64,000 bases of DNA from an uncultured Nitrososphaeraceae archaeon. GTDB taxonomy: Archaea; Thermoproteota; Nitrososphaeria; Nitrososphaerales; Nitrososphaeraceae. Numbering within the stretch: position 1 is the stretch's first letter; each line of letters starts with the position of its first letter. This document shows, piece by piece, positions 25,316 to 41,797 of the stretch. Made by a program: the position numbers and the translations under genes. The notes under the pieces were generated by a model that was not told the origin of the DNA, did not search any database, and worked only from the letters and a program-made list of their open reading frames with translations. The stretch is from positions 480,001 to 544,000 of the forward strand of contig CAVZZA010000005.1 of NCBI GenBank assembly GCA_963779615.1, written 5' to 3'.

Positions 25316-25456
25316 TCTCATTTAATGATACAAAAGTATATTGCGAAACTAGTTTTTTAAAGGATAGCAATAAATTTCCAATTGGGTATAACTCAATTCA
25401 TTTCACAAAATAGTCTAATGGGTTTGAGGCAGTTCTTTATGGTCAGTAGGTTATTT

Positions 25457-25841
25457 TCAACCTGATGCACCGTATGTATCGATATCTGTTGTGCCTGCCC
25501 AGTTATTTTGAGTATTTCCATTGACTGCAATTCTTGCTTACCTAGCACCGGTTTCTGGAAAGTCATGGTTTTTTAGGTGATGTTGATGTTCCACTGCCTT
25601 TACCGCTAAATACATTGGCAAGGGTAGTTCCATTTGTGGAAACAGACATTACAAGGTTATTTTGGCGCTGGTTTCCAGTGTGCCAAGCAATATCCACACT
25701 GGAAACATTATTCTGTGCTCCTAAATCAGGCCTTATCCATGAACCGATACCGTTTCTTGACCACATGGTGCCAAGATTATCATCTATAGCATTTGCATGC
25801 ATATTTATTTGAAGAAGAGGATTGAAGATATACCCATTCAA
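25457..25841 (-). pseudogene. discoidin (F5/8 type C) domain remnant
   Basis: NAIDDNLGTMWS..GIGSWI..DLG...IAW..GNQR, continuing after a frameshift as DFPETGAR*ARIAVNGNTQNNWA. Confidence 0.75.
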
Positions 25842-31308: not shown

Positions 31309-31372
31309 GCAGCAAAATTGCAACGGACTGGAAAGGGGCTTTTTGCCGATATCAGCATTCTAAACTGGATTC
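31309..31372. repeat. tRNA-3'-core repeat copy 1 (type A, degenerate)
   Basis: GCAGCAAAATTGCAACGGACTGGAAAGGGGCTTTTTGCCGATATCAGCATTCTAAACTGGATTC aligns with copies 2 and 5. Confidence 0.6.
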
Positions 31373-31464
31373 CATGTTTAGAAGCGAATAACATCTAAAG
31401 GTTGAGTGAATTTTGGCCTAAAAAAAGTACAACAACACCAGAGGGGGCAATCACCTTTATTGGC

Positions 31465-31911
31465 TTAAATAAAATCTTTGACTTCCAGGGTGTCAAAGTC
31501 AGTCCAAATATTATTTCCCGTAAACACAAATACCTGAAAATGCAAATGCGGGACATATGTGTAGCCCGTCATGCCAACCCTGGCTATTTCCTGGCCTGCC
31601 CGTACCTGCTGGTCCACCCTTACCATTGCGCTGCCGTATTCGAGGTGGTCGTATCGCGAGTGTTCTCCGTTTGGGTGGGTAATTGCGATAAAGTTGGTGT
31701 AACTCCAGTATGATGGACTGGGGCCACCAACATTGGAATCATCATGGACAAAGGCTACCACCCCATCTGCCGCAGCAAGGACCGGCGTACTTTGTGGAGC
31801 GATTAAATCAACCGCGTTTCTGAGGTTGCCTACATGTGCTGGAGAAGTTCTGTCTATTCTTTGTAGAAGGTTTTTTGATACCGGTAAAATATACTTATTT
31901 CGAGTTTTCAT
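31465..31911 (-). CDS. M23-family (LytM-like) zinc metallopeptidase
   Basis: H...AVDL, TPVLAAADGVV, YDHL and GMTG...PHLHF motifs. Confidence 0.9.
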   Translation of the reverse strand: MKTRNKYILPVSKNLLQRIDRTSPAHVGNLRNAVDLIAPQSTPVLAAADGVVAFVHDDSNVGGPSPSYWSYTNFIAITHPNGEHSRYDHLEYGSAMVRVDQQVRAGQEIARVGMTGYTYVPHLHFQVFVFTGNNIWTDFDTLEVKDFI

Positions 31912-32003
31912 AAAAAATATACGCCACCTTTTACACTAGTTTGTAAAACTACTATAAAGGGGTTGGACAATAATTGGCTGAACCTTTTTGAGGTTCTGGC
32001 TAT

Positions 32004-32639
32004 TTATTGCTTTTTTGCTGTTGTTGTAGTGCTGTAGTCTGTGGATGAGGAGGAGGAAGGTGTAGAGGCGGACACACTGACGCTAGAGTTTGCTGCTGCG
32101 TCTTTGGCTGCCGCTGTCAGGTGTCTTGAGTTTTGCTCAAATGTTTTTGCCGTGTTTACGCCCATGTTTGACAGGTGCTTTGAGTTGTCCTTTGCCTGTT
32201 GCAAAACTGTTTTCCATGAGTCCAGGTTTGAGAATATCACGTTGTTTGTGAGTCTGATTGCTGACACTGTGTTGTCTGCTACATTGCTGACAAACCTTGC
32301 GTATGCCTTGGTTGCTGCGTCAGGGTATGAGAACCTTGTGACTAGCCCGTTAAAGCTTTCGCTGTATGGAGCCCATGCTGATTGGAGTGAGCTGATTATT
32401 TCCTTTTGTGAGTCAATGTACTCCTCTGAAACCTCTTTTGCGGTTTGGAGTGATTGCTCCTGGTAGCTGTTAACGATGTTGTTGATTCGTGGAATCTGGT
32501 TTTTTGACTCGTCTATGGATTTTCTGATGTTGTCTTTGGCCTCGTCAAGTGACCTGTTGACTGACTCTTTGAAATCATTGTTATTGTTGTTATTGTTATA
32601 TGAGTAACTTTCTTGTGTTTCTATTTTCTTTGACATCAC
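32004..32639 (-). CDS. all-helical hypothetical protein (possibly phasin-like)
   Basis: Intact 211-aa amphipathic-helix-rich ORF with a Ser/Thr/Ala tail. Confidence 0.75.
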   Translation of the reverse strand: MMSKKIETQESYSYNNNNNNNDFKESVNRSLDEAKDNIRKSIDESKNQIPRINNIVNSYQEQSLQTAKEVSEEYIDSQKEIISSLQSAWAPYSESFNGLVTRFSYPDAATKAYARFVSNVADNTVSAIRLTNNVIFSNLDSWKTVLQQAKDNSKHLSNMGVNTAKTFEQNSRHLTAAAKDAAANSSVSVSASTPSSSSSTDYSTTTTAKKQ

Positions 32640-32864
32640 TATCTGTTGGTTGGCATCCTATATAAAGACTGGTATTAAACGGTTTTTAATGTCAATAATT
32701 TACAGAAGGGTGGTCAACCGCATGTGCATAGATGTCAGATGGCAGCAGCACCGTAACCTTGACCATGTAAATCATCAGCATAATCTGGACGTCTACTTTT
32801 ATCAATGATAGGCAGAGTTGGTTTTCGGTATTGGATAGCCCCCTTTTGCAAGGCGACAAGATCA

Positions 32865-32932
32865 CAGCCAAAATTACAGTAGCGGCGGGTCCGGAGGGCT
32901 TTGTGCCGATATCGGTCCTTTAAAATAGATTC
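32865..32932. repeat. tRNA-3'-core repeat copy 2 (type A)
   Basis: Core GCGGGTCCGGAGGG (32885-32898) followed by arm CTTTGTGCCGATATCGGTCCTTTAAAATAGATTC. Confidence 0.85.
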
Positions 32933-33247
32933 TTATTTTTTAGGCGATGTTAAATTATTTAAAGATTTACTTTTGATGGACATTATTTTAATAAGAAAAC
33001 AGACTCCACTTTTACATGGAGTTGAAATACTACACGATTTGTCCTGTGAATGGCATTAGTCTTACTGTAAATCAAAAGATCTTATATGACAATTTATCTC
33101 CATACTTATATAATTGTCCTACCATGACAAACTACGCCCAACATAAGTGGAGAATCTAGTCCTGATTATGGTGTTAAGCAAATCTCCCAAGCAACTGAAA
33201 TAAAGAATCTTTACTTCGATCTTTTAAAGTCACCTAAAAAGGAAATA

Positions 33248-34875
33248 ATGCTGATTTTGCCTACCAGTAATGCCTTTGAGCGTCACGTGCGAATTGGAAT
33301 ATTTGGTTTATTAAGGCAGGTTGAAAGAGAGAAAAACCTCCGGGTTAGAGTTAGGATGCTGGTGCCAGTGGAAAACTTAAAATACAGTGAGGAAATAGTG
33401 CAAGAAACATTTTCTTCAAAAGAAAACTATGAGCAAGATCCCAGTAACAATATCCATATACGGTATATCGCCGAGCAACGGTCTGTCGACCTACAAGAAA
33501 CCATCCTGATAGTGGACAGGGAAACCTCCCTCATAATTGAATTGATGGATGACACGAAAGCTGCTTTTGAAGAGGCAATAGGTCTGGCAACCTACTCTAA
33601 CAGCAAATCAACAGTGTTGTCCTATGTCTCAATATTTGAAAGCCTGTGGGGGCAAACAGAGATGTATCAGGAACTAAACCATCTATACAAGCGGCTCCAA
33701 GACCACGACAAGATGCAAAACGAGTTTATCAGCATTGCAGCCCATGAACTGAGAACCCCCATACAACCAATACTTGGACTGTCCGAACTCCTTCTTTCCA
33801 GGAAGGTGAACATCGAGCAGGAACAAGAGTTGCTAAACGTCATAATCAGAAACGCAAAAAGGCTGCGAAAGATTTCAGAAAACATACTTGATGCAACAAA
33901 AATTGAGAGTCAGCAGTTAAATGTTGACAAGCAATACTTTGGGTTAAATGACATGATAGCAAATGTTCTTGCAGAGAACAAAAAACTGCTGGAAGGCAAC
34001 AACCAAAGAAAAATAATGTTAGCATACTCCAGCAATGATGACAACATTGTTGTAAAGGCAGATTCAGAGAGCTAACTCAGGTTGTCTCGAATCTTTTGGG
34101 TAATGCCATCAAATTCACCCAGAGCGGGGAGATATCCGTTAATGTTGCAAAGGATGAATCCGATCAACAAATTATCGTCAGTGTGACCGACACGGGTCAG
34201 GGTATCGATCCTGAAATAATGCCAAGGCTGTTTTCAAAATTTGCCACAAAATCCATTGCAGGGACAGGATTGGGCCTGTACATATCCAAAAGAATCATTG
34301 AAGCCCATGGAGGCAAAATGTGGGCCGAGAACAATCCAGATGGAACAGGTGCCACATTCTCATTTACGATCCCACTGGTAACTCAGCAAGGCCATAAGGA
34401 AAGCATGGTTATCGACACTGTTTCCACCATGAACAACGGCATTGGGGAAGGGGTAAGGAAGGGAAGTGTGTATCATACCACCCATAAGGCAAAAACAAAG
34501 CGGATATTTTTGGTGGACGATGACCAGGATCACACTGTTACCTTCAAGTTGGGTTTGGAGCTCGCAGGATTTGAAGTTGATGCGTATAATGATTCAGCAA
34601 TCGCATTGTCAAAGTTCAGGCCGGACTACTATGACCTGCTGCTAATTGATGTCAAAATGCCAAAGATTGATGGATTAGAGCTTTATGAAAAGATAAGGAA
34701 AATGGACAACAAAGTTGTGGTGTGGTTTATCACCGCATATGAAACGTATTACAGATCATTAAAAGCAGTCTCACCAACGTCAAAAGGAGAAATGAGTCCA
34801 GGTCCTGTCATTGAAAAACCCATTGAGATAGACAGGCTAGTGAAGCAAATAAAGACAGAGTTGCATCTCAGATAG
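33248..34875 (+). pseudogene. hybrid histidine kinase-receiver protein, 1-bp frameshift at ~34070
   Basis: AAHELRTP in ORF1; LTQVVSNLLGNAIKF, DTGQGI, GTGLGL and receiver VDDD/IDVKMP/EKP in ORF2; junction GAT TCA GAG AG^CTA ACT CAG. Confidence 0.85.
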
Positions 34876-34996
34876 GCATCCCTTGTCACAGACCTGATTG
34901 CATGTGCATATGGGGAACACGCATCGCAGTCTTGCCCCTGCTGTTTTTGCCCCATACCCAACTATTGATTTGTGGGCCCATTATTTTGTTTTGATC

Positions 34997-35069
34997 CCCA
35001 ATAAAGTAGTGAAACTGCGACGGGCCCGGAGGGATGTGATTCAAGATTCAAAAATGAATGAAACCTAAA
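34997..35069. repeat. tRNA-3'-core repeat copy 3 (type B)
   Basis: CCCAATAAAGTAGTGAAACTGCG-ACGGGCCCGGAGGG-...TTCAAAAATGAATGAAACCTAAA. Confidence 0.8.
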
Positions 35070-35305
35070 TTCAGTAATAAAATAGCATCCTTTCATCTTC
35101 ACTGGAGTTTGTCTATACTTATTTTCTCCATAGGCCATGTGAATCCCATTTATGGTTATTGCAAGTCCAGACCTTGATTCATTCCGTCAATAATGCCGTC
35201 TCCTGGCTGGATGGGCCATCCATCGTAAAGTACTTTCTCCCCTCAATAGACGTTTGTTAAGGCTATTGAGGCGGTTCTATTTGTTCAGGAAGACCTGACG
35301 TTCTT

Positions 35306-36024
35306 TCAATCCTTTTTTGTAGCCAAAAGATAAAGTGTAACGGGCTCTTCACATTCCTCTTCTCTTATCCACAGAACGTGGAAGTTTTCATCAGACATTA
35401 AATTTAAGGTTTCTTAGTTTGAAGGGAATCGAATCTCAAATCCGTATATATCACAAATCCCATTTTCAACCTCAACGCCCTTACCACAGAATTTGCCATT
35501 ATGGTTTCTTGCCGAAAAGAAGTTTAGGCCATTTGGCTTTAGCACTATTTATTTCTGAAAGTATGGAATGAATTTCTTCTAAAGAAAACCTCGTGTTAAG
35601 CAGCATGTGGGGGAATACACCGCATCAAGATGAGCATCTGGAAAAGGAAACGGTTTATTGACATCGTAAACTCGCGGTTCTATTTTTAATTTTTTTCCTG
35701 TGCCATTTCACATAATATTTCGATAGCCGTGATGGAGTAGTAGTCCAATGCATCTACCGAAAGGCCTTTGGAAGCAAAAAATACCGTATCCCTGCCGTGA
35801 CCGGCCCCAATCTCCAATATCCCCTCTACATTGTTTGCCCTCATATCACCAAAACAAAGCATGGCAAAGCTGCTGGGTTCCTCCCCAATGAAACTGCCGT
35901 CTGAACCGTATACCCTGTTCCAAGCTTCACTGAACTCCTTTGTTTCTAGTCCTTTGTTATCATCATCTTTCCTTTTTTTTGTAGTGATAGAGTGCAGACA
36001 ATGCAATGTAATCATCAGACACAA
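35306..36024 (-). pseudogene. class I SAM-dependent methyltransferase (TehB-like), multiply frameshifted
   Basis: GEEPS.FA and LEIGAGHGRD motifs; continues in other frames as PFPDAHLDAVYS and LKPNGLNFFS. Confidence 0.8.
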
Positions 36025-36067
36025 AAAATGAACTTTTTTGTTCTATGAGATCTCAAAAATTTATGGA

Positions 36068-36883
36068 TTAGTGCTGCATCATTGCCATAGGCATTTTATC
36101 TGCAGTTTTGTTTGCCGCTGCCTCCTCAGGACCCATCATTGTTTTGGTTGAAATAGAACGGTCTATTCCAATTCCGCTAATCAGTGTTCCAAACATTTCG
36201 TTTGAGCTTGAGAAATGCCCCCCTGTTTTATTTACATCAATTGTGAGCCCTAGAACTTTCTTACCCATGAGGTGGACAATCAGGGGAACCTGGTCGTATT
36301 CCAACCCATTGTCAGAGTGAATATCTGCTGTTCCAGTTACAACTATGTCATTGCCTGTAGGAAATACATTATTCGATGAAAAGTTTTTGATTGTGTGGTT
36401 GTGCGAAAGGCTTCCGTCTGGCTTTATCATGGTGAAATCGGCAGCAAAGTTTGCTTTGTAGTTGCTGGCACTTGTCTGATTGTTGTCATTGTTGTTGTTG
36501 TTACCGTCATTATATGTCACATTATTTATTTGAAGGTTCCAAAACCCACCTTGAATCCATGTGACAACTCCCTCTTTAATCTGGTTGTTTGCAAAATGCC
36601 CTGATGCCTCCATTATGCTTTCAGGCTTGTTTTGGTTGTTTGTGTCTTTGTCTGTCGGCGAGATATTTGCAGAAGGTTGTTGTTGTTGTTGTGCAATAGC
36701 CTGCGGGATGTCGTTATTGGTATGTGATAAAGGTTTTGTTGGTATGCCTGTTGGCAGGTTTTGAAATGCTGTTATAAACAAAAATCCAATGAGAATTATG
36801 GTGTGCATGTTGTCCTTGACTGAATATTGAAGAAAATTGCTCCCCATATAGTATTTTTTATTGTTGTTGTTTATAAAAAGCAC
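36068..36883 (-). CDS. secreted or membrane-anchored beta-rich hypothetical protein
   Basis: Hydrophobic N-region, AIAQ and low-complexity Q/N runs; ADFTMIKPDGSLSHNHTI core. Confidence 0.75.
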   Translation of the reverse strand: MLFINNNNKKYYMGSNFLQYSVKDNMHTIILIGFLFITAFQNLPTGIPTKPLSHTNNDIPQAIAQQQQQPSANISPTDKDTNNQNKPESIMEASGHFANNQIKEGVVTWIQGGFWNLQINNVTYNDGNNNNNDNNQTSASNYKANFAADFTMIKPDGSLSHNHTIKNFSSNNVFPTGNDIVVTGTADIHSDNGLEYDQVPLIVHLMGKKVLGLTIDVNKTGGHFSSSNEMFGTLISGIGIDRSISTKTMMGPEEAAANKTADKMPMAMMQH

Positions 36884-36903
36884 CCATAAATTGAAAAATC
36901 AAA

Positions 36904-36921
36904 TTTTGAGGGCCCTCAAAA
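36904..36921. promoter_or_regulatory. perfect 18-bp palindrome, putative operator
   Basis: TTTTGAGGGCCCTCAAAA immediately upstream of the 36068..36883 gene. Confidence 0.35.
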
Positions 36922-37351
36922 GGACGGCCGGTTGGCGGTTTTTTTGCTTTTGTCATTTGAATCCTTAATGCGGCTGAGAGAAACCATTTGAAAAGGTATT
37001 TGTTTCTATTAATAGAGAATTGGAAATCTACAAAACCTGAATAAACCATTTATTTGACCATTTAACCATCCACCGCAATAGTTCTAAGGGAGTACAAGAA
37101 TGAGTCGGCCCCTTTCTAAAATTGTTTTATGGCCTAAAGAAAAACAGTACCAGAGTAAAGGACATCAGATACGCCATGGACAGCATGAACGCCATAATGG
37201 CCTAGAGCAGCGAAGGGGCAAAATGAAGGAGGAGGAGGAGGTTCATTCGCTAAAAGAGGAGAGGACATTGTTGGACAACCTGGGCGACATCAAAAGGGCA
37301 TGTTGTTGAATGTCCGCTTAATACCATTCTGAAAGAAGGTTTGACTGGTCT

Positions 37352-37609
37352 CTATTTTATAAACTCTATAATTGCTTGTCTTGGGTCAATGTTGTTTTCA
37401 TTCAAAGTTTCCAACAGTTTTAGTGGGTCTTTGGCGCTGTAGACTTTCCGGTTCTTTACTGCAACAAACTCGTTTTTGTGCTTTAGGCAAAGTTCGTCGT
37501 GCTTATCACTAAAGTACTCGAAATCCTTTTCATACTCTTTTGATAGTTCCCTTTCTTCACCCTTGACGGCTTTTCTCTTGCCCACACCCATAAGATAGGT
37601 CTCACTCAA
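37352..37609 (-). CDS. small DUF5678-like protein
   Basis: YFSDKHDELCLKHKNEFVAVKN...IEFI; paralog of 7754..8005. Confidence 0.6.
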   Translation of the reverse strand: MSETYLMGVGKRKAVKGEERELSKEYEKDFEYFSDKHDELCLKHKNEFVAVKNRKVYSAKDPLKLLETLNENNIDPRQAIIEFIK

Positions 37610-37848
37610 AAATACTTTTTGATATCAAAAGCTGTTATCCAATACCATTATAAATTCATAAAAAGATGTAACCGGGTGTTGTTTGTCAGCCACAATGAAC
37701 ACAGGTTTTAACATGTTCCTGATATAGCATGTTCGCCCTTTCACCGTCTCTTGTCCATCTTCTCAACCAATTAATTTTCGAGTTGTTCCTAAATATTTGA
37801 TGCACTAAATTACTCACATTTTGTAAAGGAATTACTATTGAGTTTGAA

Positions 37849-37913
37849 CCCAATAAATAGTCAATTTGATGCGGGCCCGGTGGGGTGCGGTTCAAAAATT
37901 AATGAAACCTAAA
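37849..37913. repeat. tRNA-3'-core repeat copy 4 (type B)
   Basis: CCCAATAAATAGTCAATTTGAT-GCGGGCCCGGTGGG-GTGCGGTTCAAAAATTAATGAAACCTAAA. Confidence 0.85.
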
Positions 37914-38160
37914 CTGGTTTATTTGTATTTCAATAAATGTTATAAGATATTATTCTAACGATTGTAAAAAAAGAACAACAAGGTTATTGTCCAAGTTCAT
38001 CGTAACCAAATTACCATAAAATTACTACAGGCCACATTTTACAGTCAACATAGAATTGAGAGGATATCAGTAAAAATAAAAAAAGGATTCTTTTAAATTT
38101 TTTACACATGTGTTTAGATGTTGGTCATGTTAAATTGAGTGATGTTTACACAGCATAACT

Positions 38161-38730
38161 CTATGGTCCGAATGCCAATCCGGAGTCCTTTAGACACTTT
38201 ATCAAGTTGTTGATTAATTCATCTGAAAGGGCAAACTGTTCCTTTAAGTAATCCCTAATCAACGATTCTGAAATCATACCCTCACTTGCCCCTGCTGCGC
38301 ATTCACCTGCAAGCGAAATCTGATTAGTGTCAATTAATATCTTGCTTATTTGTTCCGAGGTAAAGAATTTTGTGAAACACTGCTCACAGGTTAATGGTGC
38401 CGGTTGTGTTGGTGGTGTTGCAGCGGATGGTGTGGATTGTGGAACACTACTGCTTTGGTCGTTGAACCCCTTTGCGTCGTTGTCCTTGCCCACTATCTGT
38501 TGTGCTTCATTTCCCTGCTTGCAATCGTCGCTCCTGTAGCAGAAGTTGTCCTGGTCCAGGTGTTGGCCTGCGCTCTTTTTGTCAACTTCAGAGCCTGCCT
38601 TTACAGATGACTTGAAATCAGTGGCTTTTTTGTGCTGGTCTGCATATGACTGCATCGGGATTATGCTAGTTCCCATTATTAATAACGATGTGACTACTGC
38701 CATCAACAGAATGTTTCTAGTATTGCCCAT
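38161..38730 (-). CDS. secreted Cys-containing protein, paralog A
   Basis: Signal peptide (PMQSYA), conserved LDQDNFCYR.DDC.Q.N..QQIVGKDNDAKGFNDQS block and CEQC C-terminal domain. Confidence 0.85.
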   Translation of the reverse strand: MGNTRNILLMAVVTSLLIMGTSIIPMQSYADQHKKATDFKSSVKAGSEVDKKSAGQHLDQDNFCYRSDDCKQGNEAQQIVGKDNDAKGFNDQSSSVPQSTPSAATPPTQPAPLTCEQCFTKFFTSEQISKILIDTNQISLAGECAAGASEGMISESLIRDYLKEQFALSDELINNLIKCLKDSGLAFGP

Positions 38731-39073
38731 AATTGAAATTCAGACGCATTTGTTGATATAATTGAAGTAAGTTTGTTAATACTTAATATTTTGTCGGAAT
38801 TTATTAACCTGAAAAGACAAGTATAACATTTATGCCATATTGTTTAAGATGATTATTTGATAGAATCTTTACCTCATTTATCAAATGAAGTGTAGCTGCT
38901 ATATTTCGGTGAAACAACTTAAAAAACAACACATGTAACAAAGCCTTGGATGTTGTAATAGTAAATCATAATGGGCGATTTCTTGCATCTTTAAAAACCA
39001 ACCTGTATATCCACATCATATGTACGATGATTCTAAACAGACAGCAAAAACAAAAATTGGTCATAGACTTGGT

Positions 39074-39145
39074 CCCAGAAAAAGCGTTATCATTGAAGCG
39101 GGCCCGGAGGGCTTCGTGCCGATATCGGTCCTTTTAAATGGATTC
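39074..39145. repeat. tRNA-3'-core repeat copy 5 (type A right arm, B-like left arm)
   Basis: CCCAGAAAAAGCGTTATCATTGAA-GCGGGCCCGGAGGG-CTTCGTGCCGATATCGGTCCTTTTAAATGGATTC. Confidence 0.85.
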
Positions 39146-39437
39146 TAGTCATATTGAAACTGTTAGGATATAAAGTTATCAATTCATATAAAATACAATA
39201 TCGTTTTTTTCATAAGAGTATAAAAAAATATGCAAGTTATTGCAGTACCTTTTGTTGATTTTGAAGGTAGGTATAAAGAACATCGTTAAATTATAAGATA
39301 AAGTTATGCTAAACATTTCTCTTTGCATTTCTAGTGTAAAAATTATGCTTATATTTTCAGGTAAACAAATTCCAATAAAATATCAGGTATCAACAATCCT
39401 ATCCTAATTATACCAAAAAATGTATCATATTCCAATC

Positions 39438-40028
39438 ATGAATAACACAAAAAATTTATTATTGATAGCAATAATCGCGATAACACTCGTTTTGGGGACA
39501 AGCGTTATCCCAATGCAGTCATTTGCAGACAAGGACAATGACAATCACAAAAAAACCAAGGACTTTAAATCCTCAATAATCGCAGGCTCTGAGTCAGACA
39601 AGAAGAGCGCAATCCAAAAACTGGACCAAGACAACTTCTGCTACAGGGGCGACGACTGTGAGCAAGCCAACCAGGGACAACAGATAGTTGGAAAGGACAA
39701 CGACGCAAAGGGATTCAATGACCAAAGCGACAACCTCGCAATATCCACTTCAGCATCAGGCGCAGGCAATGGTACAGGAACGGGAGGAACAACAACACCT
39801 CAACAGAAATGTGAACTCTGTCTATTGGATGTTGACTTAACAGCCTTCTTCTCTGCTGCCCATGTTAGCGATTCAGGAATTGATACCACCGCAAAGCTTT
39901 GTGCATTGCTCTCGGCTGGCACTCTCGATGATGTCATTTTAGAGATATTATTGAGATTTTTAAGCGACCCTACAGAGCAATGCTTGATAGACGCAGGCAT
40001 TAATCTAACTGTTCGTCCTACACAATAG
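39438..40028 (+). CDS. secreted Cys-containing protein, paralog B
   Basis: Same signal peptide and conserved block as 38161..38730; start placed at ATG 39438 by alignment with the paralog. Confidence 0.85.
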   Translation: MNNTKNLLLIAIIAITLVLGTSVIPMQSFADKDNDNHKKTKDFKSSIIAGSESDKKSAIQKLDQDNFCYRGDDCEQANQGQQIVGKDNDAKGFNDQSDNLAISTSASGAGNGTGTGGTTTPQQKCELCLLDVDLTAFFSAAHVSDSGIDTTAKLCALLSAGTLDDVILEILLRFLSDPTEQCLIDAGINLTVRPTQ

Positions 40029-40504
40029 AAAAGAATTACAGAATCGTGAAAAAGACACCTAAAGATAGGTGTGAAATCTTTTTTTTTATAATCTAATACA
40101 ATAAGATTTATTTTCATGGATATACCCATGGGAATAGTTACAATATGAATTATTATTCTTTTTAAAGGACCTGGAAAGGTTTCTTAAGGTTTGAATTTCT
40201 GCATTTAAGAAAATAACAATAAATGCAAAATTAGAAAAACGAACCAGAAGAAATTAACCAGTCGCTTAAGGAAAGGGACAAATGTAAGGATGACGCCATA
40301 ACAATGCTCTCAGACCAGCTTTTGACAATCACGGAGAGCAGAAGGAACTGGAAAGAAAGCAACAATTCCAAGAAAACAAAAAATCCGGATATGTCATTCT
40401 ATTTACTAAAGTAAATAACTAGAGTTTTTAGACTATTATAATTATTTCCATCATATTTTTTTTAATAAATTTTCTTTAGTTAATGTGTTAATCTAGATTA
40501 ACAA

Positions 40505-40570
40505 CCCAAGAAAATAGTCAAATTTGATGCGGGCCCGGAGGGGTCCGGTTCAAAAATGAATTGAATCTAA
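40505..40570. repeat. tRNA-3'-core repeat copy 6 (type B)
   Basis: CCCAAGAAAATAGTCAAATTTGAT-GCGGGCCCGGAGGG-GTCCGGTTCAAAAATGAATTGAATCTAA. Confidence 0.85.
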
Positions 40571-40717
40571 TATAGTTACAACTATCCTATGCATTTCTAT
40601 GTTAAACAATATATAAAATAATTAAAAAAACAATTTTATCAAGTATCCAATGGATTGGTGTGGCCAGAATCCACAGAGTAGTTGGTCAGTTAACAGGTAA
40701 GGTATTCCCTTGCTTCA

Positions 40718-41797
40718 TCAACCAGAGGGTGTTGTAGTCGACAGGAATGTATTTAATATCTTACCAATTTCTTCTGGATATTGATCCATTACTGCATGAC
40801 CAGCATCTTTGATCTGTACCAACCATGCCCCTGGAATCTTTTCTACAATCTTTAAAGAATTGACATGCGGCGCGTAAGTCTTATCGTCTGTTCCAGTTAT
40901 GACCAAAGTGGGCTTATCCAATTTCGCAAGCTCATCACAAGCACCACTCCAGTTTGGATTATCCTCCCAATGCTTTCCTATGTTATTCTGGTTATTCATT
41001 ATTTCAGGGGGCAAATCAGGCTTTAATTGCTGCAACATTGTAATGTTTTCTGCAACGTCAGCAGATTCAGGATGCAATTTTATCCATCCAGACCCTAATG
41101 AGGCAGTTACAAGGGATTTCATCTCCTCCCGAGAAATAGATTCATTGTTTAGAGATTTGTTTACGATATCGGCCTGCAATTTTATAAACTCGGGTGGTTT
41201 AGGAGTATGATCTTTTCCACCACAGGTAGAACCAACAAGTATAAGACTATTGACCTTATCTGGATACATCATTGTAAGCTGTTGGGCCAAGTTTGATCCA
41301 AGAGAATATCCAAAGACATTTGCCTTTTGTATTTTTAGAGCATCAAGCAAACCAGCTGAATCGTTTGCTATTTGCTGATAAGTGTATGGCTTGAAACCAG
41401 CTGTTGTATTTCCAATCCCACGTTGATCAAACGCAATTACTGTGTGATTTGGAGAAACACTACTTATAAAGGACGGATCCCAGGCATCCATACCATCAGA
41501 AGCGCCATTGAAAAGTATTATTGGATCACCCTTGCCAACCATCTTGTAGGCAACATCAATGTCTCCAACATGGACTTTTTCCAATTGGATGTCTTGCATA
41601 TTCACCAAGTTCGCAGTATTGGAATTGGCCTGGCCAGGATCTGTTTGACCATACACTACATTGGTAATGCCATTATAACCATTGGCACTAATTGACGAGT
41701 TTGAGAAAACTAGAGTAGATATGACTGCAATAATGAAAAGATAATCTTTCCTTTCAACTCTATTACCATTCACAAACTTATGCTTTTTCTCAGGCAT
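40718..41797 (-). CDS. exported alpha/beta hydrolase
   Basis: N-terminal hydrophobic segment, FDQRGIG, GYSLG, GTDD and DAGH motifs. Confidence 0.9.
   Translation of the reverse strand: MPEKKHKFVNGNRVERKDYLFIIAVISTLVFSNSSISANGYNGITNVVYGQTDPGQANSNTANLVNMQDIQLEKVHVGDIDVAYKMVGKGDPIILFNGASDGMDAWDPSFISSVSPNHTVIAFDQRGIGNTTAGFKPYTYQQIANDSAGLLDALKIQKANVFGYSLGSNLAQQLTMMYPDKVNSLILVGSTCGGKDHTPKPPEFIKLQADIVNKSLNNESISREEMKSLVTASLGSGWIKLHPESADVAENITMLQQLKPDLPPEIMNNQNNIGKHWEDNPNWSGACDELAKLDKPTLVITGTDDKTYAPHVNSLKIVEKIPGAWLVQIKDAGHAVMDQYPEEIGKILNTFLSTTTPSG

Follow-up and report, generated by a model that had tools for sequence, protein, structure and literature searches.

What are the six co-oriented repeats that lie within 9.2 kb of a contig from an uncultured Nitrososphaeraceae archaeon, and how did they come to separate small groups of accessory genes from one another? 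The repeats occupy positions 31,309 to 40,570 of a stretch of 64,000 nucleotides (the window), which corresponds to positions 480,001-544,000 of contig C5 of a soil ammonia-oxidising archaeon with a genome of 3.17 Mb and 36% GC (this genome is G000 in our set, and the relatives mentioned below are G005, G007, G012, G015, G018 and G036). An earlier interpretation, made from the letters of the DNA only (the sequence-only reading), had proposed that the repeats are recombination sites derived from the 3' end of a tRNA, dividing the DNA into gene cassettes in an integron-like manner. Our analysis makes it probable that the array consists of stacked modules resembling cis-mobilizable elements (CIMEs), left by tRNA-targeting elements that lost their integrases, and that the repeats are their attachment (att) sites. 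We regard them as att sites because integrases adjoin the canonical copies elsewhere, alignments between loci break at the cores of the repeats, the ends found on the two sides of a core occur in mixed combinations, and one module, cassette 5, is precisely absent from one contig of a related strain.

The tRNA-derived core and its two arm families

A search of the window with up to two mismatches located five copies of the repeat core, GCGGGCCCGGAGGG, at 32885, 35020, 37871, 39098 and 40529, each of them on the + strand. Each copy has at most one mismatch, the expected number of copies is 0.04, and none of 100 shuffled sequences reached five. At the sixth site, at 31324, the core has decayed below the search threshold, and the type A arm next to it is still recognisable (nhmmer E 3.8e-4; arm model R1 E 1.1e-12). 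Alignment sorts the right arms into two families, type A in copies 1, 2 and 5 and type B in copies 3, 4 and 6, and confirms a left arm common to copies 3, 4 and 6. The description of six co-oriented repeats in two arm families, given in the sequence-only reading, is upheld by the core search, the shuffles and the alignments, with the core of copy 1 now known to be decayed.

Taken as its reverse complement, the core equals the final 14 bases of two intron-bearing tRNAs, tRNA-Lys-UUU and tRNA-Arg-UCU (Rfam, ARAGORN), which end in ...CCC(A/U)CCGGGCCCG. The same ending is found in tRNA-Arg-CCU (read by eye), and the end of tRNA-Arg-GCG differs from the core by one mismatch. The match spans the 3' strand of the T-stem, the 3' strand of the acceptor stem and the discriminator G, as had been predicted, as well as one further base, and a search of the genome for tRNAs with this 3' end succeeded. 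The shared segment is 18 nt long between the type A sites and tRNA-Arg-UCU, and about 15 nt long between the type B sites and tRNA-Lys-UUU or tRNA-Arg-CCU. The window thus contains direct repeats whose sequence is that of a tRNA gene's 3' part, a characteristic of att arrays. Arm A has another source. Elsewhere, it is joined to the cores of other tRNAs (tRNA-Met, 14/14 at two sites; tRNA-Arg-TCG, 13/14), and it is thus the distal terminus of a family of elements that uses several tRNAs, and not a tRNA-derived sequence. The gene of tRNA-Arg-CCU (C5:869777-869880, or L018:7777-7880, minus strand) carries about 26 extra nt in the D-loop region; ARAGORN did not report it, Rfam recognised it at 38 bits, and its anticodon was read by eye.

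Among the type A sites, site 1 (31324..31396) comprises the decayed core at 31324-31337 and its arm, and belongs to repeat family D2 (61%). Site 2 (32861..32960, E 1.2e-17) has flank L6 at 32861-32884, the core at 32885-32898 and an arm with the palindrome CCGATATCGG, and site 5 (39070..39172, E 3.4e-18) has flank L3 and its core at 39098-39111. The type B sites are site 3 (34996..35080; flank L4, core 35020-35033, an arm with a 7-nt internal duplication, E 2.6e-12), site 4 (37847..37930; flank L5, core 37871-37884, E 8.9e-16) and site 6 (40505..40582; flank L5, core 40529-40542, E 3.3e-13). All six are on the + strand. Within the type A palindrome GATATC is invariant in the 7/7 aligned copies, the type B arm carries ATTCA-N4-TGAAT, and both palindromes are centred about 12 nt from the core. 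A TATA-like stretch, read by eye, is conserved in arm A and faces the cargo gene in cassettes 2 and 5, and the left flanks contain oligo-T on the tRNA-sense strand. Copies 4 and 6 have a short hairpin beside the core that other type B copies do not keep. No Rfam family was matched at these sites in the search of the window; they read as tRNA 3' ends with two unrelated flanks.

Integrases and recombination at the cores

Sites of the same construction are found next to tyrosine integrase genes in other parts of the genome. We sorted 48 left flanks, which on the tRNA-sense strand are situated downstream of the tRNA, into families and recorded the arm with which each is paired. Flank L2 separates a tRNA from a tyrosine integrase gene: behind it comes an intact 421-aa integrase (C4:212888-214153) adjoining tRNA-Arg-GCG, and truncated integrases follow it at tRNA-Arg-TCG and at an orphan core (C4:267755). 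Fragments of another type of integrase follow flank L1 at tRNA-Arg-UCU. In relatives, L3 and L5 are followed by integrase homologs (422 aa in G007, 417 aa in G015, a fragment in G036), those of G007 and G015 having 43-57% identity to the integrases of this genome. Flank L3, which is that of site 5, is also found behind the intact tRNA-Lys-UUU and tRNA-Arg-CCU. The 421-aa protein scores 26.3 bits in Pfam against a cut-off of 27.1, matches a PHROG integrase family at 2.7e-14, and reaches 47.9 bits with the NCBIfam XerA/integron-integrase model, the cut-off of which is 220; a PDB sequence search gave no relevant match. Its motifs IRLGAW, HSLRKW and SNSYY, found by eye, were judged against R..HxxR..Y, which we take to be the pattern of the family. 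The element that carries it also encodes a 791-aa protein (L022:4619-6994, contig C4, minus strand), which may be a replication protein; it has no match in Pfam, NCBIfam or PHROGs.

Two loci of this genome present the complete arrangement. The small element at C1:130080-135117 consists, in this order, of tRNA-Arg-TCG, L2, a truncated integrase, cargo, arm A, the core and L1. The array at C4:251943-283849 is anchored on tRNA-Arg-UCU, and its integrase fragments lie behind the tRNA, behind the core at C4:267755 and, in one more case, inside the next module. The association extends to other genomes: relatives of the integrase occur in Nitrososphaeraceae records, many of them labelled Candidatus Nitrosocosmicus, and at 14 of 48 such loci a tRNA on the same strand (Met, Ala, Arg, Lys and others) ends no more than about 160 nt upstream. 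The proposal that the tRNA 3' ends are att sites of tyrosine-integrase elements is therefore well founded, the integrases behind tRNAs and cores being one part of the evidence and the breakpoints, the assortment of ends and the absence of cassette 5, described below, the other. In addition, L2 resembles arm A in inverted polarity, with matches in 6/6 L2-type flanks (E 8e-5 to 0.086) and none in direct polarity, and the other 42 flanks have no similarity to arm A. Canonical elements therefore have imperfect inverted termini of about 28 nt around the core, which are predicted protein-binding sites. Examples of the L2 flank are at C1:130155-130190 and C4:214176-214208. Arm B has neither inverted nor direct similarity to the left flanks.

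Comparisons among the copies within the genome place the breakpoints at the cores, as can be observed directly in the alignments. Between the segment 32896-35069 of the window and C5:588711-590876, an identity of 94% extends from one core until shortly after the following one, and the arm beyond the second core is clearly less similar. Five high-scoring segment pairs start at core 5 (39099-39104), leading to C5:226417, C4:277483, C5:202592, C3:438346 and C3:1001863, and the sequences to their left differ. Likewise, 31913-32885 aligns with C5:828595-829597 up to core 2, and the paralogous locus then continues, at C5:829594, with arm B where the window has arm A. The pairing of flanks and arms is mixed as well: L1 occurs with five A arms, three B arms and one intact tRNA, L3 with two A arms, one B arm and two tRNAs, and L6 with one arm of each type. 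Flank families are common to intact tRNA genes and orphan cores, and 22 of the 48 flanks are singletons.

The precise gain or loss of a module is seen in one contig assembled from the public sequencing run X3 (record 19, 395 nt, depth 5.5, about 93-94% identical), which joins 38911-39082 to 40524-40737. The contig passes from flank L3 through a core into site 6's arm B and then into the hydrolase gene, and the 1.43-kb cassette 5 (39093..40542) is absent; the 11 letters between the two halves match the L3 flank. Because the repeat common to both sites is shorter than 31 nt, a k-mer assembly chimera seems unlikely. Other X3 contigs cover the junction of cassettes 3 and 4 and cassette 4 itself. 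In seven other X3 joints the shorter side is at most 43 nt, and these are probably due to paralogs.

A similar turnover is suggested by the tRNA-Lys locus, for which we compared 12 orthologous loci from relatives, the tRNA being present in 10 of them. The flanks in these 10 are L3-like in three, L2-like in three, L5-like in one, of another common type in two and unique in one, and no downstream gene is common among the 10. The locus is a hot spot with at least five flank types. G018 has a 5.3-kb insert without an integrase between tRNA-Lys and an orphan core followed by L3; its cargo encodes a TrmB regulator, an NmrA-like protein and a beta-lactamase-fold protein, and it is absent in G012, G007 and G036. 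The tRNA-Lys of this genome is followed by a 1.7-kb module with one gene, for a beta-helix protein, and by an orphan core with arm B. The comparison of cassettes between strains that the sequence-only reading called for has hence given, in one contig, a junction at the core with cassette 5 missing, and the finding of modules fully syntenic in relatives without gain or loss, which would have spoken against it, was not made.

The window is the densest part of a much wider distribution. An nhmmer census of the 3.17 Mb with a cut-off of E<1e-3 located about 21 sites of type A and 18 of type B over all five contigs, the six of the window in 9.2 kb being the tightest cluster. A search of 25 other genomes of the genus found arm A in 25/25 (2-43 matches each; 26 in this genome) and arm B in 16/25 (1-7 matches each; 20 in this genome), so that the arms, whose genome-wide and wider occurrence had been put forward for checking, are a property of the genus. 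In the relative G005 (L084, G005:C280, 2190-4034), three co-oriented sites of types A, B and A are 646 and 1155 nt apart, with open reading frames (ORFs) of 75-100 aa between them. We also searched for the last 16 nt of the 38 distinct tRNA 3' ends with at most one mismatch. Orphan copies exist for about 18 of the 38 (Met 10, Ala-CGC 4, Gly-CCC 4, Ser-GGA 3, Val-TAC 3 and Val-GAC 3), mostly co-oriented with and downstream of their own tRNA over 20-150 kb, and anchored arrays are found elsewhere in the genome at Arg-UCU, Arg-CCU, Lys-UUU, Met, Ala-CGC, Gly-CCC and Ser-GGA. Such an architecture is general in this genome. Between 202 and 870 kb of C5, 15 of 16 A/B sites have one orientation, that of tRNA-Arg-CCU at 869.8 kb, a bias that may reflect giant accretion islands, the direction of replication or chance. 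This tRNA is the end of a 40-kb anchored array. On contig C1 the orientation of the sites switches once, between 488 and 497 kb.

Origin of the modules

We propose that each site represents the last 14-18 bases of tRNA-Arg or tRNA-Lys, copied when elements recombined with the chromosome by means of a tyrosine integrase. On the tRNA-sense strand, a site would begin with the distal end of one element (arm A or B), continue with the tRNA 3' end and close with the following element's integrase-proximal end (L1-L6), and this last flank would also supply the oligo-T that ends the tRNA transcript. Serial insertion would have led to tandem accretion, and the integrases would have been lost by internal deletion, leaving modules of 1.2-2.9 kb with both att sites. 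An integrase encoded elsewhere, for which the intact 421-aa enzyme adjoining tRNA-Arg-GCG is a candidate, may still delete, insert or swap modules from core to core; the earlier idea of modules stacked or shuffled by an integrase in trans is plausible in this sense.

Several features of the array are consistent with such a history. The ends of the modules are the ends of integrase-bearing elements, and the simplest origin is therefore the loss of the integrase and of most of the cargo after successive integrations. Each module is bounded by two sites and lacks an integrase, and CIMEs are defined by keeping both att sites while lacking the genes for integration and transfer. The integrase expected next to the tRNA-proximal att site is missing in the window and is present in the sister arrays and, with the same flank types, in relatives. 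Since L3 and L5 are integrase-proximal ends in these relatives, the tiny modules look like derivatives that have lost the integrase and not like a separate class of cassettes. Signs of decay are present too, a frameshifted histidine kinase gene and methyltransferase fragments making two broken cargo genes.

Other observations weigh against accretion and decay. The window contains neither an intact tRNA (none was found in the search of its 64 kb) nor an integrase gene, both absences having been noted from the sequence; PF00589 has three matches in the genome and none in the window. The array is therefore not anchored as a classical tandem array would be. As no integrase remains in it, the former integrases are known only by inference: in a tblastn search with seven distinct integrases as queries and E up to 10, the matches inside the array were at chance level, the best being 19 aa long, at E 0.012 and on the wrong strand. 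The gain or loss of cassette 5 is seen in a single contig of 395 nt at depth 5.5, no other core-to-core joint being found among the 8 joints listed, and the public sequencing runs, which were available as assembled contigs, each contain no more than 0.22 of the sampled words. Finally, there are even smaller modules in the dense arrays of G005, and the arms are conserved throughout the genus; a maintained system therefore fits these data at least as well as random decay does.

A maintained system could take more than one form. It is doubtful, but worth stating, that the tRNA-end cores and arms A and B make up a working gene-exchange grid across the genus. The few intact integrases, acting in trans, would release any segment between two co-oriented cores in circular form and integrate it at a different core, and single-gene modules with their own promoter (arm A) and terminator (L flank) would be shuffled, duplicated and accumulated. 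If so, an integron-like function would have been built from tRNA att sites, and it may help to drive the large paralog families and large genomes of these organisms. We consider it unlikely that the array is a dedicated cassette platform, functionally integron-like, in which circles without an integrase are inserted and excised in trans at any core and the array serves as a gene reservoir, each module having a single gene or a few genes and one composite site (L flank, core and arm). The modules have the size and content that this requires (1.2-2.9 kb, 1-3 genes each), but their genes are found on either strand, and in two cases the cargo gene is a pseudogene. The precise gain or loss of cassette 5, the duplication of a whole core-to-core module at 94%, the integrase-less inserts at the intact tRNA-Lys (1.7 kb in G000, 5.3 kb in G018) and the mini-array in G005 would all suit a platform; however, neither an integrase nor an entry site adjoins the array, and L3 and L5 are tRNA-integrase spacers of integrase-bearing elements in relatives, which indicates derivation by loss. 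The TATA-like stretch of arm A that faces the cargo in cassettes 2 and 5 and the retention of the arms in the other genomes (A in 25/25, B in 16/25) also agree with a platform, yet L2 alone mirrors arm A, and the cassettes of the window lack the symmetric arm pair of canonical elements. We find it improbable that the array was assembled mainly by chromosomal rearrangement and not by serial insertion at this locus, inversions, translocations or deletions through integrase-mediated or homologous recombination between dispersed att sites having joined pieces of different islands. The roughly 40 sites over all five contigs, the missing anchor tRNA, the nearly uniform orientation of the C5 sites at 202-870 kb, like that of tRNA-Arg-CCU, and flanking genes that are not syntenic in five relatives can be read in this way. 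Such an account does not of itself explain the six tightly spaced co-oriented sites and the precise absence of a module, and it is compatible with accretion and not exclusive of it.

Two further explanations do without recombination at att sites. That the repeats are cis-regulatory or small-RNA elements, made of a palindromic operator and a promoter or terminator, copied along with expanding paralog families and resembling tRNAs only incidentally, is very improbable: the cores match different tRNA 3' ends exactly, according to the locus, the left flanks are also found behind real tRNA genes, integrases adjoin the canonical copies, unrelated genes follow the arms on either strand, and no Rfam family is matched, even though members of one paralog family follow arm A in six loci, both arms have palindromes about 12 nt from the core, and the left flanks contain oligo-T on the tRNA-sense strand. 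We give hardly any credence to a family of non-autonomous transposons similar to miniature inverted-repeat transposable elements (MITEs) that made many insertions. About 40 dispersed copies with 60-100 conserved nt, in both orientations on the contigs, could suggest it, but the repeat search revealed no terminal inverted repeats at the window sites and no target-site duplications were found there, so the MITE-like scatter that had been named as contrary evidence is not what we see. Moreover, every copy has a tRNA 3' end on one side, and its two sides are combined independently of each other.

Compared with known systems, the modular accretion that we favour has partial counterparts. Integrons are arrays of small gene modules with tyrosine-recombinase sites between them, from which a module can be lost precisely, and the array of the window is similar in these respects. 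It differs from them in having no adjacent integrase, no attI and no common promoter, its genes lie on both strands, apparently with promoters of their own, where integron cassettes are co-oriented, mostly promoterless and transcribed from one shared promoter, and its sites read as tRNA 3' ends with asymmetric arms more than as attC sites, which are hairpin-forming imperfect inverted repeats. With no dedicated integrase, no attI, no common promoter, genes on both strands and two pseudogenes, an integron-like system in the strict sense is not supported.

The closer parallels are found among integrated elements. CIMEs are described as having lost their integration genes and kept attL and attR, and tandems comprising integrative and conjugative elements (ICEs), integrative and mobilizable elements (IMEs) and CIMEs as stacked by site-specific integration into an att site, which lies at the 3' end of a gene for a tRNA or another product, and mostly decayed (PMC5704250). 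Bacterial CIMEs and accretion tandems, such as the ICESt1/ICESt3 family as treated there, resemble the window array in att retention, stacking and decay; the array differs in being archaeal, in having no evident conjugation module, in its much smaller modules (1.2-2.9 kb) and in its six sites in a row without an anchoring tRNA. The tycheposon islands of Prochlorococcus, according to their description (10.1101/2020.12.28.424599), lie beside tRNA genes, with no more than a partial copy of a tRNA between neighbouring elements, with broken integrases and further partial tRNAs dispersed within them, and with cargo gained or lost at the sites. The arrays of this archaeon are similar in their partial tRNAs, broken integrases and gained or lost modules. 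They belong to another domain of life, and their integrase family was found only in records labelled Nitrososphaerales or Thermoproteota. The conserved arms A and B, which are not of tRNA origin, are a feature seen here and not part of that description of tycheposons.

Within the Thaumarchaeota, 57% of the integrated elements surveyed by Krupovic et al. (2019, PMC6563490) are in tRNA genes, their att sites have a median length of 17 bp, most are cryptic, and the survey mentions arrays that arose by repeated use of a single site. The sites of the window are like these in their tRNA targets, short att sequences and arrays from site re-use. The elements of that survey carry integrases, whereas the window contains dense integrase-less mini-modules, although its supplementary tables may list small elements. 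Nitrosocosmicus is not named in the main text of PMC6563490, and the Nitrosocosmicus literature that we consulted mentions integrase-flanked genomic islands only in general terms (PMC13245735), its supplements possibly listing small elements as well. Accretion at att sites is a known way of building genomic islands; what is new here is an unanchored and unusually dense array of integrase-less modules, with tRNA-Arg/Lys att sites and two arm families that occur throughout the genus. In Nitrososphaeraceae ammonia oxidisers the genomes are unusually large and many gene families are expanded, and little is known of the ways in which genes are acquired and reshuffled. In this one genome, dozens of att sites are the traces of serial site-specific recombination at tRNA 3' ends, and modules are gained or lost at them. 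If integrase-less modules still move, archaea would have in this array a counterpart of the CIMEs or tycheposon islands of bacteria, and it would offer a simple experimental system, made up of a 421-aa integrase and sites about 100 bp long; otherwise it would be an ordinary fossil record of past integrations.

Genes in and around the modules

Site 6 is followed by an alpha/beta hydrolase gene (40718-41797, minus strand) with homologs in five relatives. No other gene around the hydrolase is common to the five, so that the flanks of the array are not syntenic, and no core lies within 1.5 kb of the homologs in these relatives (857 bases available in one). A clear foreign signature is absent from the base composition of the array, the GC content of which is 0.38-0.42, compared with 0.35-0.39 in its left neighbours and 0.36-0.47 further right. 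About 6 kb to the left of the array, a gene-poor gap of 1.7 kb holds the only trace of an integrase in the window, a relic of 26-40 aa from the same family at 25366-25488 on the minus strand (tblastn E 2e-5 to 2e-3), with no core seen beside it by eye.

The five modules have 1-3 genes each, and their ORFs follow the strand pattern -,-; +,+; -,-,-; -; +. The gene content described in the sequence-only reading stood in part: the M23 peptidase and the helical protein were confirmed, the histidine kinase-receiver gene proved to be frameshifted, the methyltransferase to be a fragment and the DUF5678 match to lie below the cut-off, and the two secreted paralogs are without a family match. In cassette 1, the peptidase (148 aa, 31465..31911, minus strand) matches PF01551 at E 3e-21 and PHROG endolysin/peptidase families, and the neighbouring helical low-complexity protein (211 aa, 32004..32639, minus strand) has no NCBIfam or PHROG family. 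The latter has about a dozen paralogs in the genome, several of them beside cores and none with a family match, and occurs in many copies per genome across the genus, with about 75% DNA identity. Cassette 2 carries the hybrid histidine kinase-receiver pseudogene (33248..34875, + strand), which is split by a frameshift near 34075-34096 into two ORFs (33248-34075, with HisKA, and 34096-34875, with HATPase_c and REC). Its 94% identical paralog at L019:8960-10690 is an intact ORF of 576 aa, and one X3 contig has an extra T behind 34070, beside the frameshift, so the break in the kinase may be specific to this genome.

Three minus-strand features make up cassette 3. The putative S-adenosylmethionine-dependent methyltransferase (35579..36042, motif ILEIGAGHGRD) is a pseudogene reduced to an N-terminal fragment and a further piece in another frame; it matches an NCBIfam MduS-type methyltransferase at model positions 5-86 of 338 only and has no Pfam match at E<=0.01. 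It is followed by a 271-aa protein rich in Asn and Gln (36068..36883), which has an N-terminal hydrophobic stretch and belongs to no family, and by an 85-aa protein (37352..37609) with a weak match to DUF5678 (Pfam E 0.0055, below the cut-off), paralogs of which lie inside other arrays (C4:281264, C5:219159 and C3:1134931). The proteins of cassettes 4 and 5 have no match in Pfam, NCBIfam or PHROGs. They are the products of diverged paralogs in opposite orientation, part of a large paralog family: the gene of cassette 4 (189 aa, 38161..38730, minus strand) has dozens of paralogous matches in the genome, and that of cassette 5 (202 aa, 39420..40028, + strand) belongs to a gene family that occurs together with arm A in five other loci. 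An inverted repeat, I1, surrounds site 5, pairing 38452-38640 with 39540-39728 over 189 nt at 80% identity.

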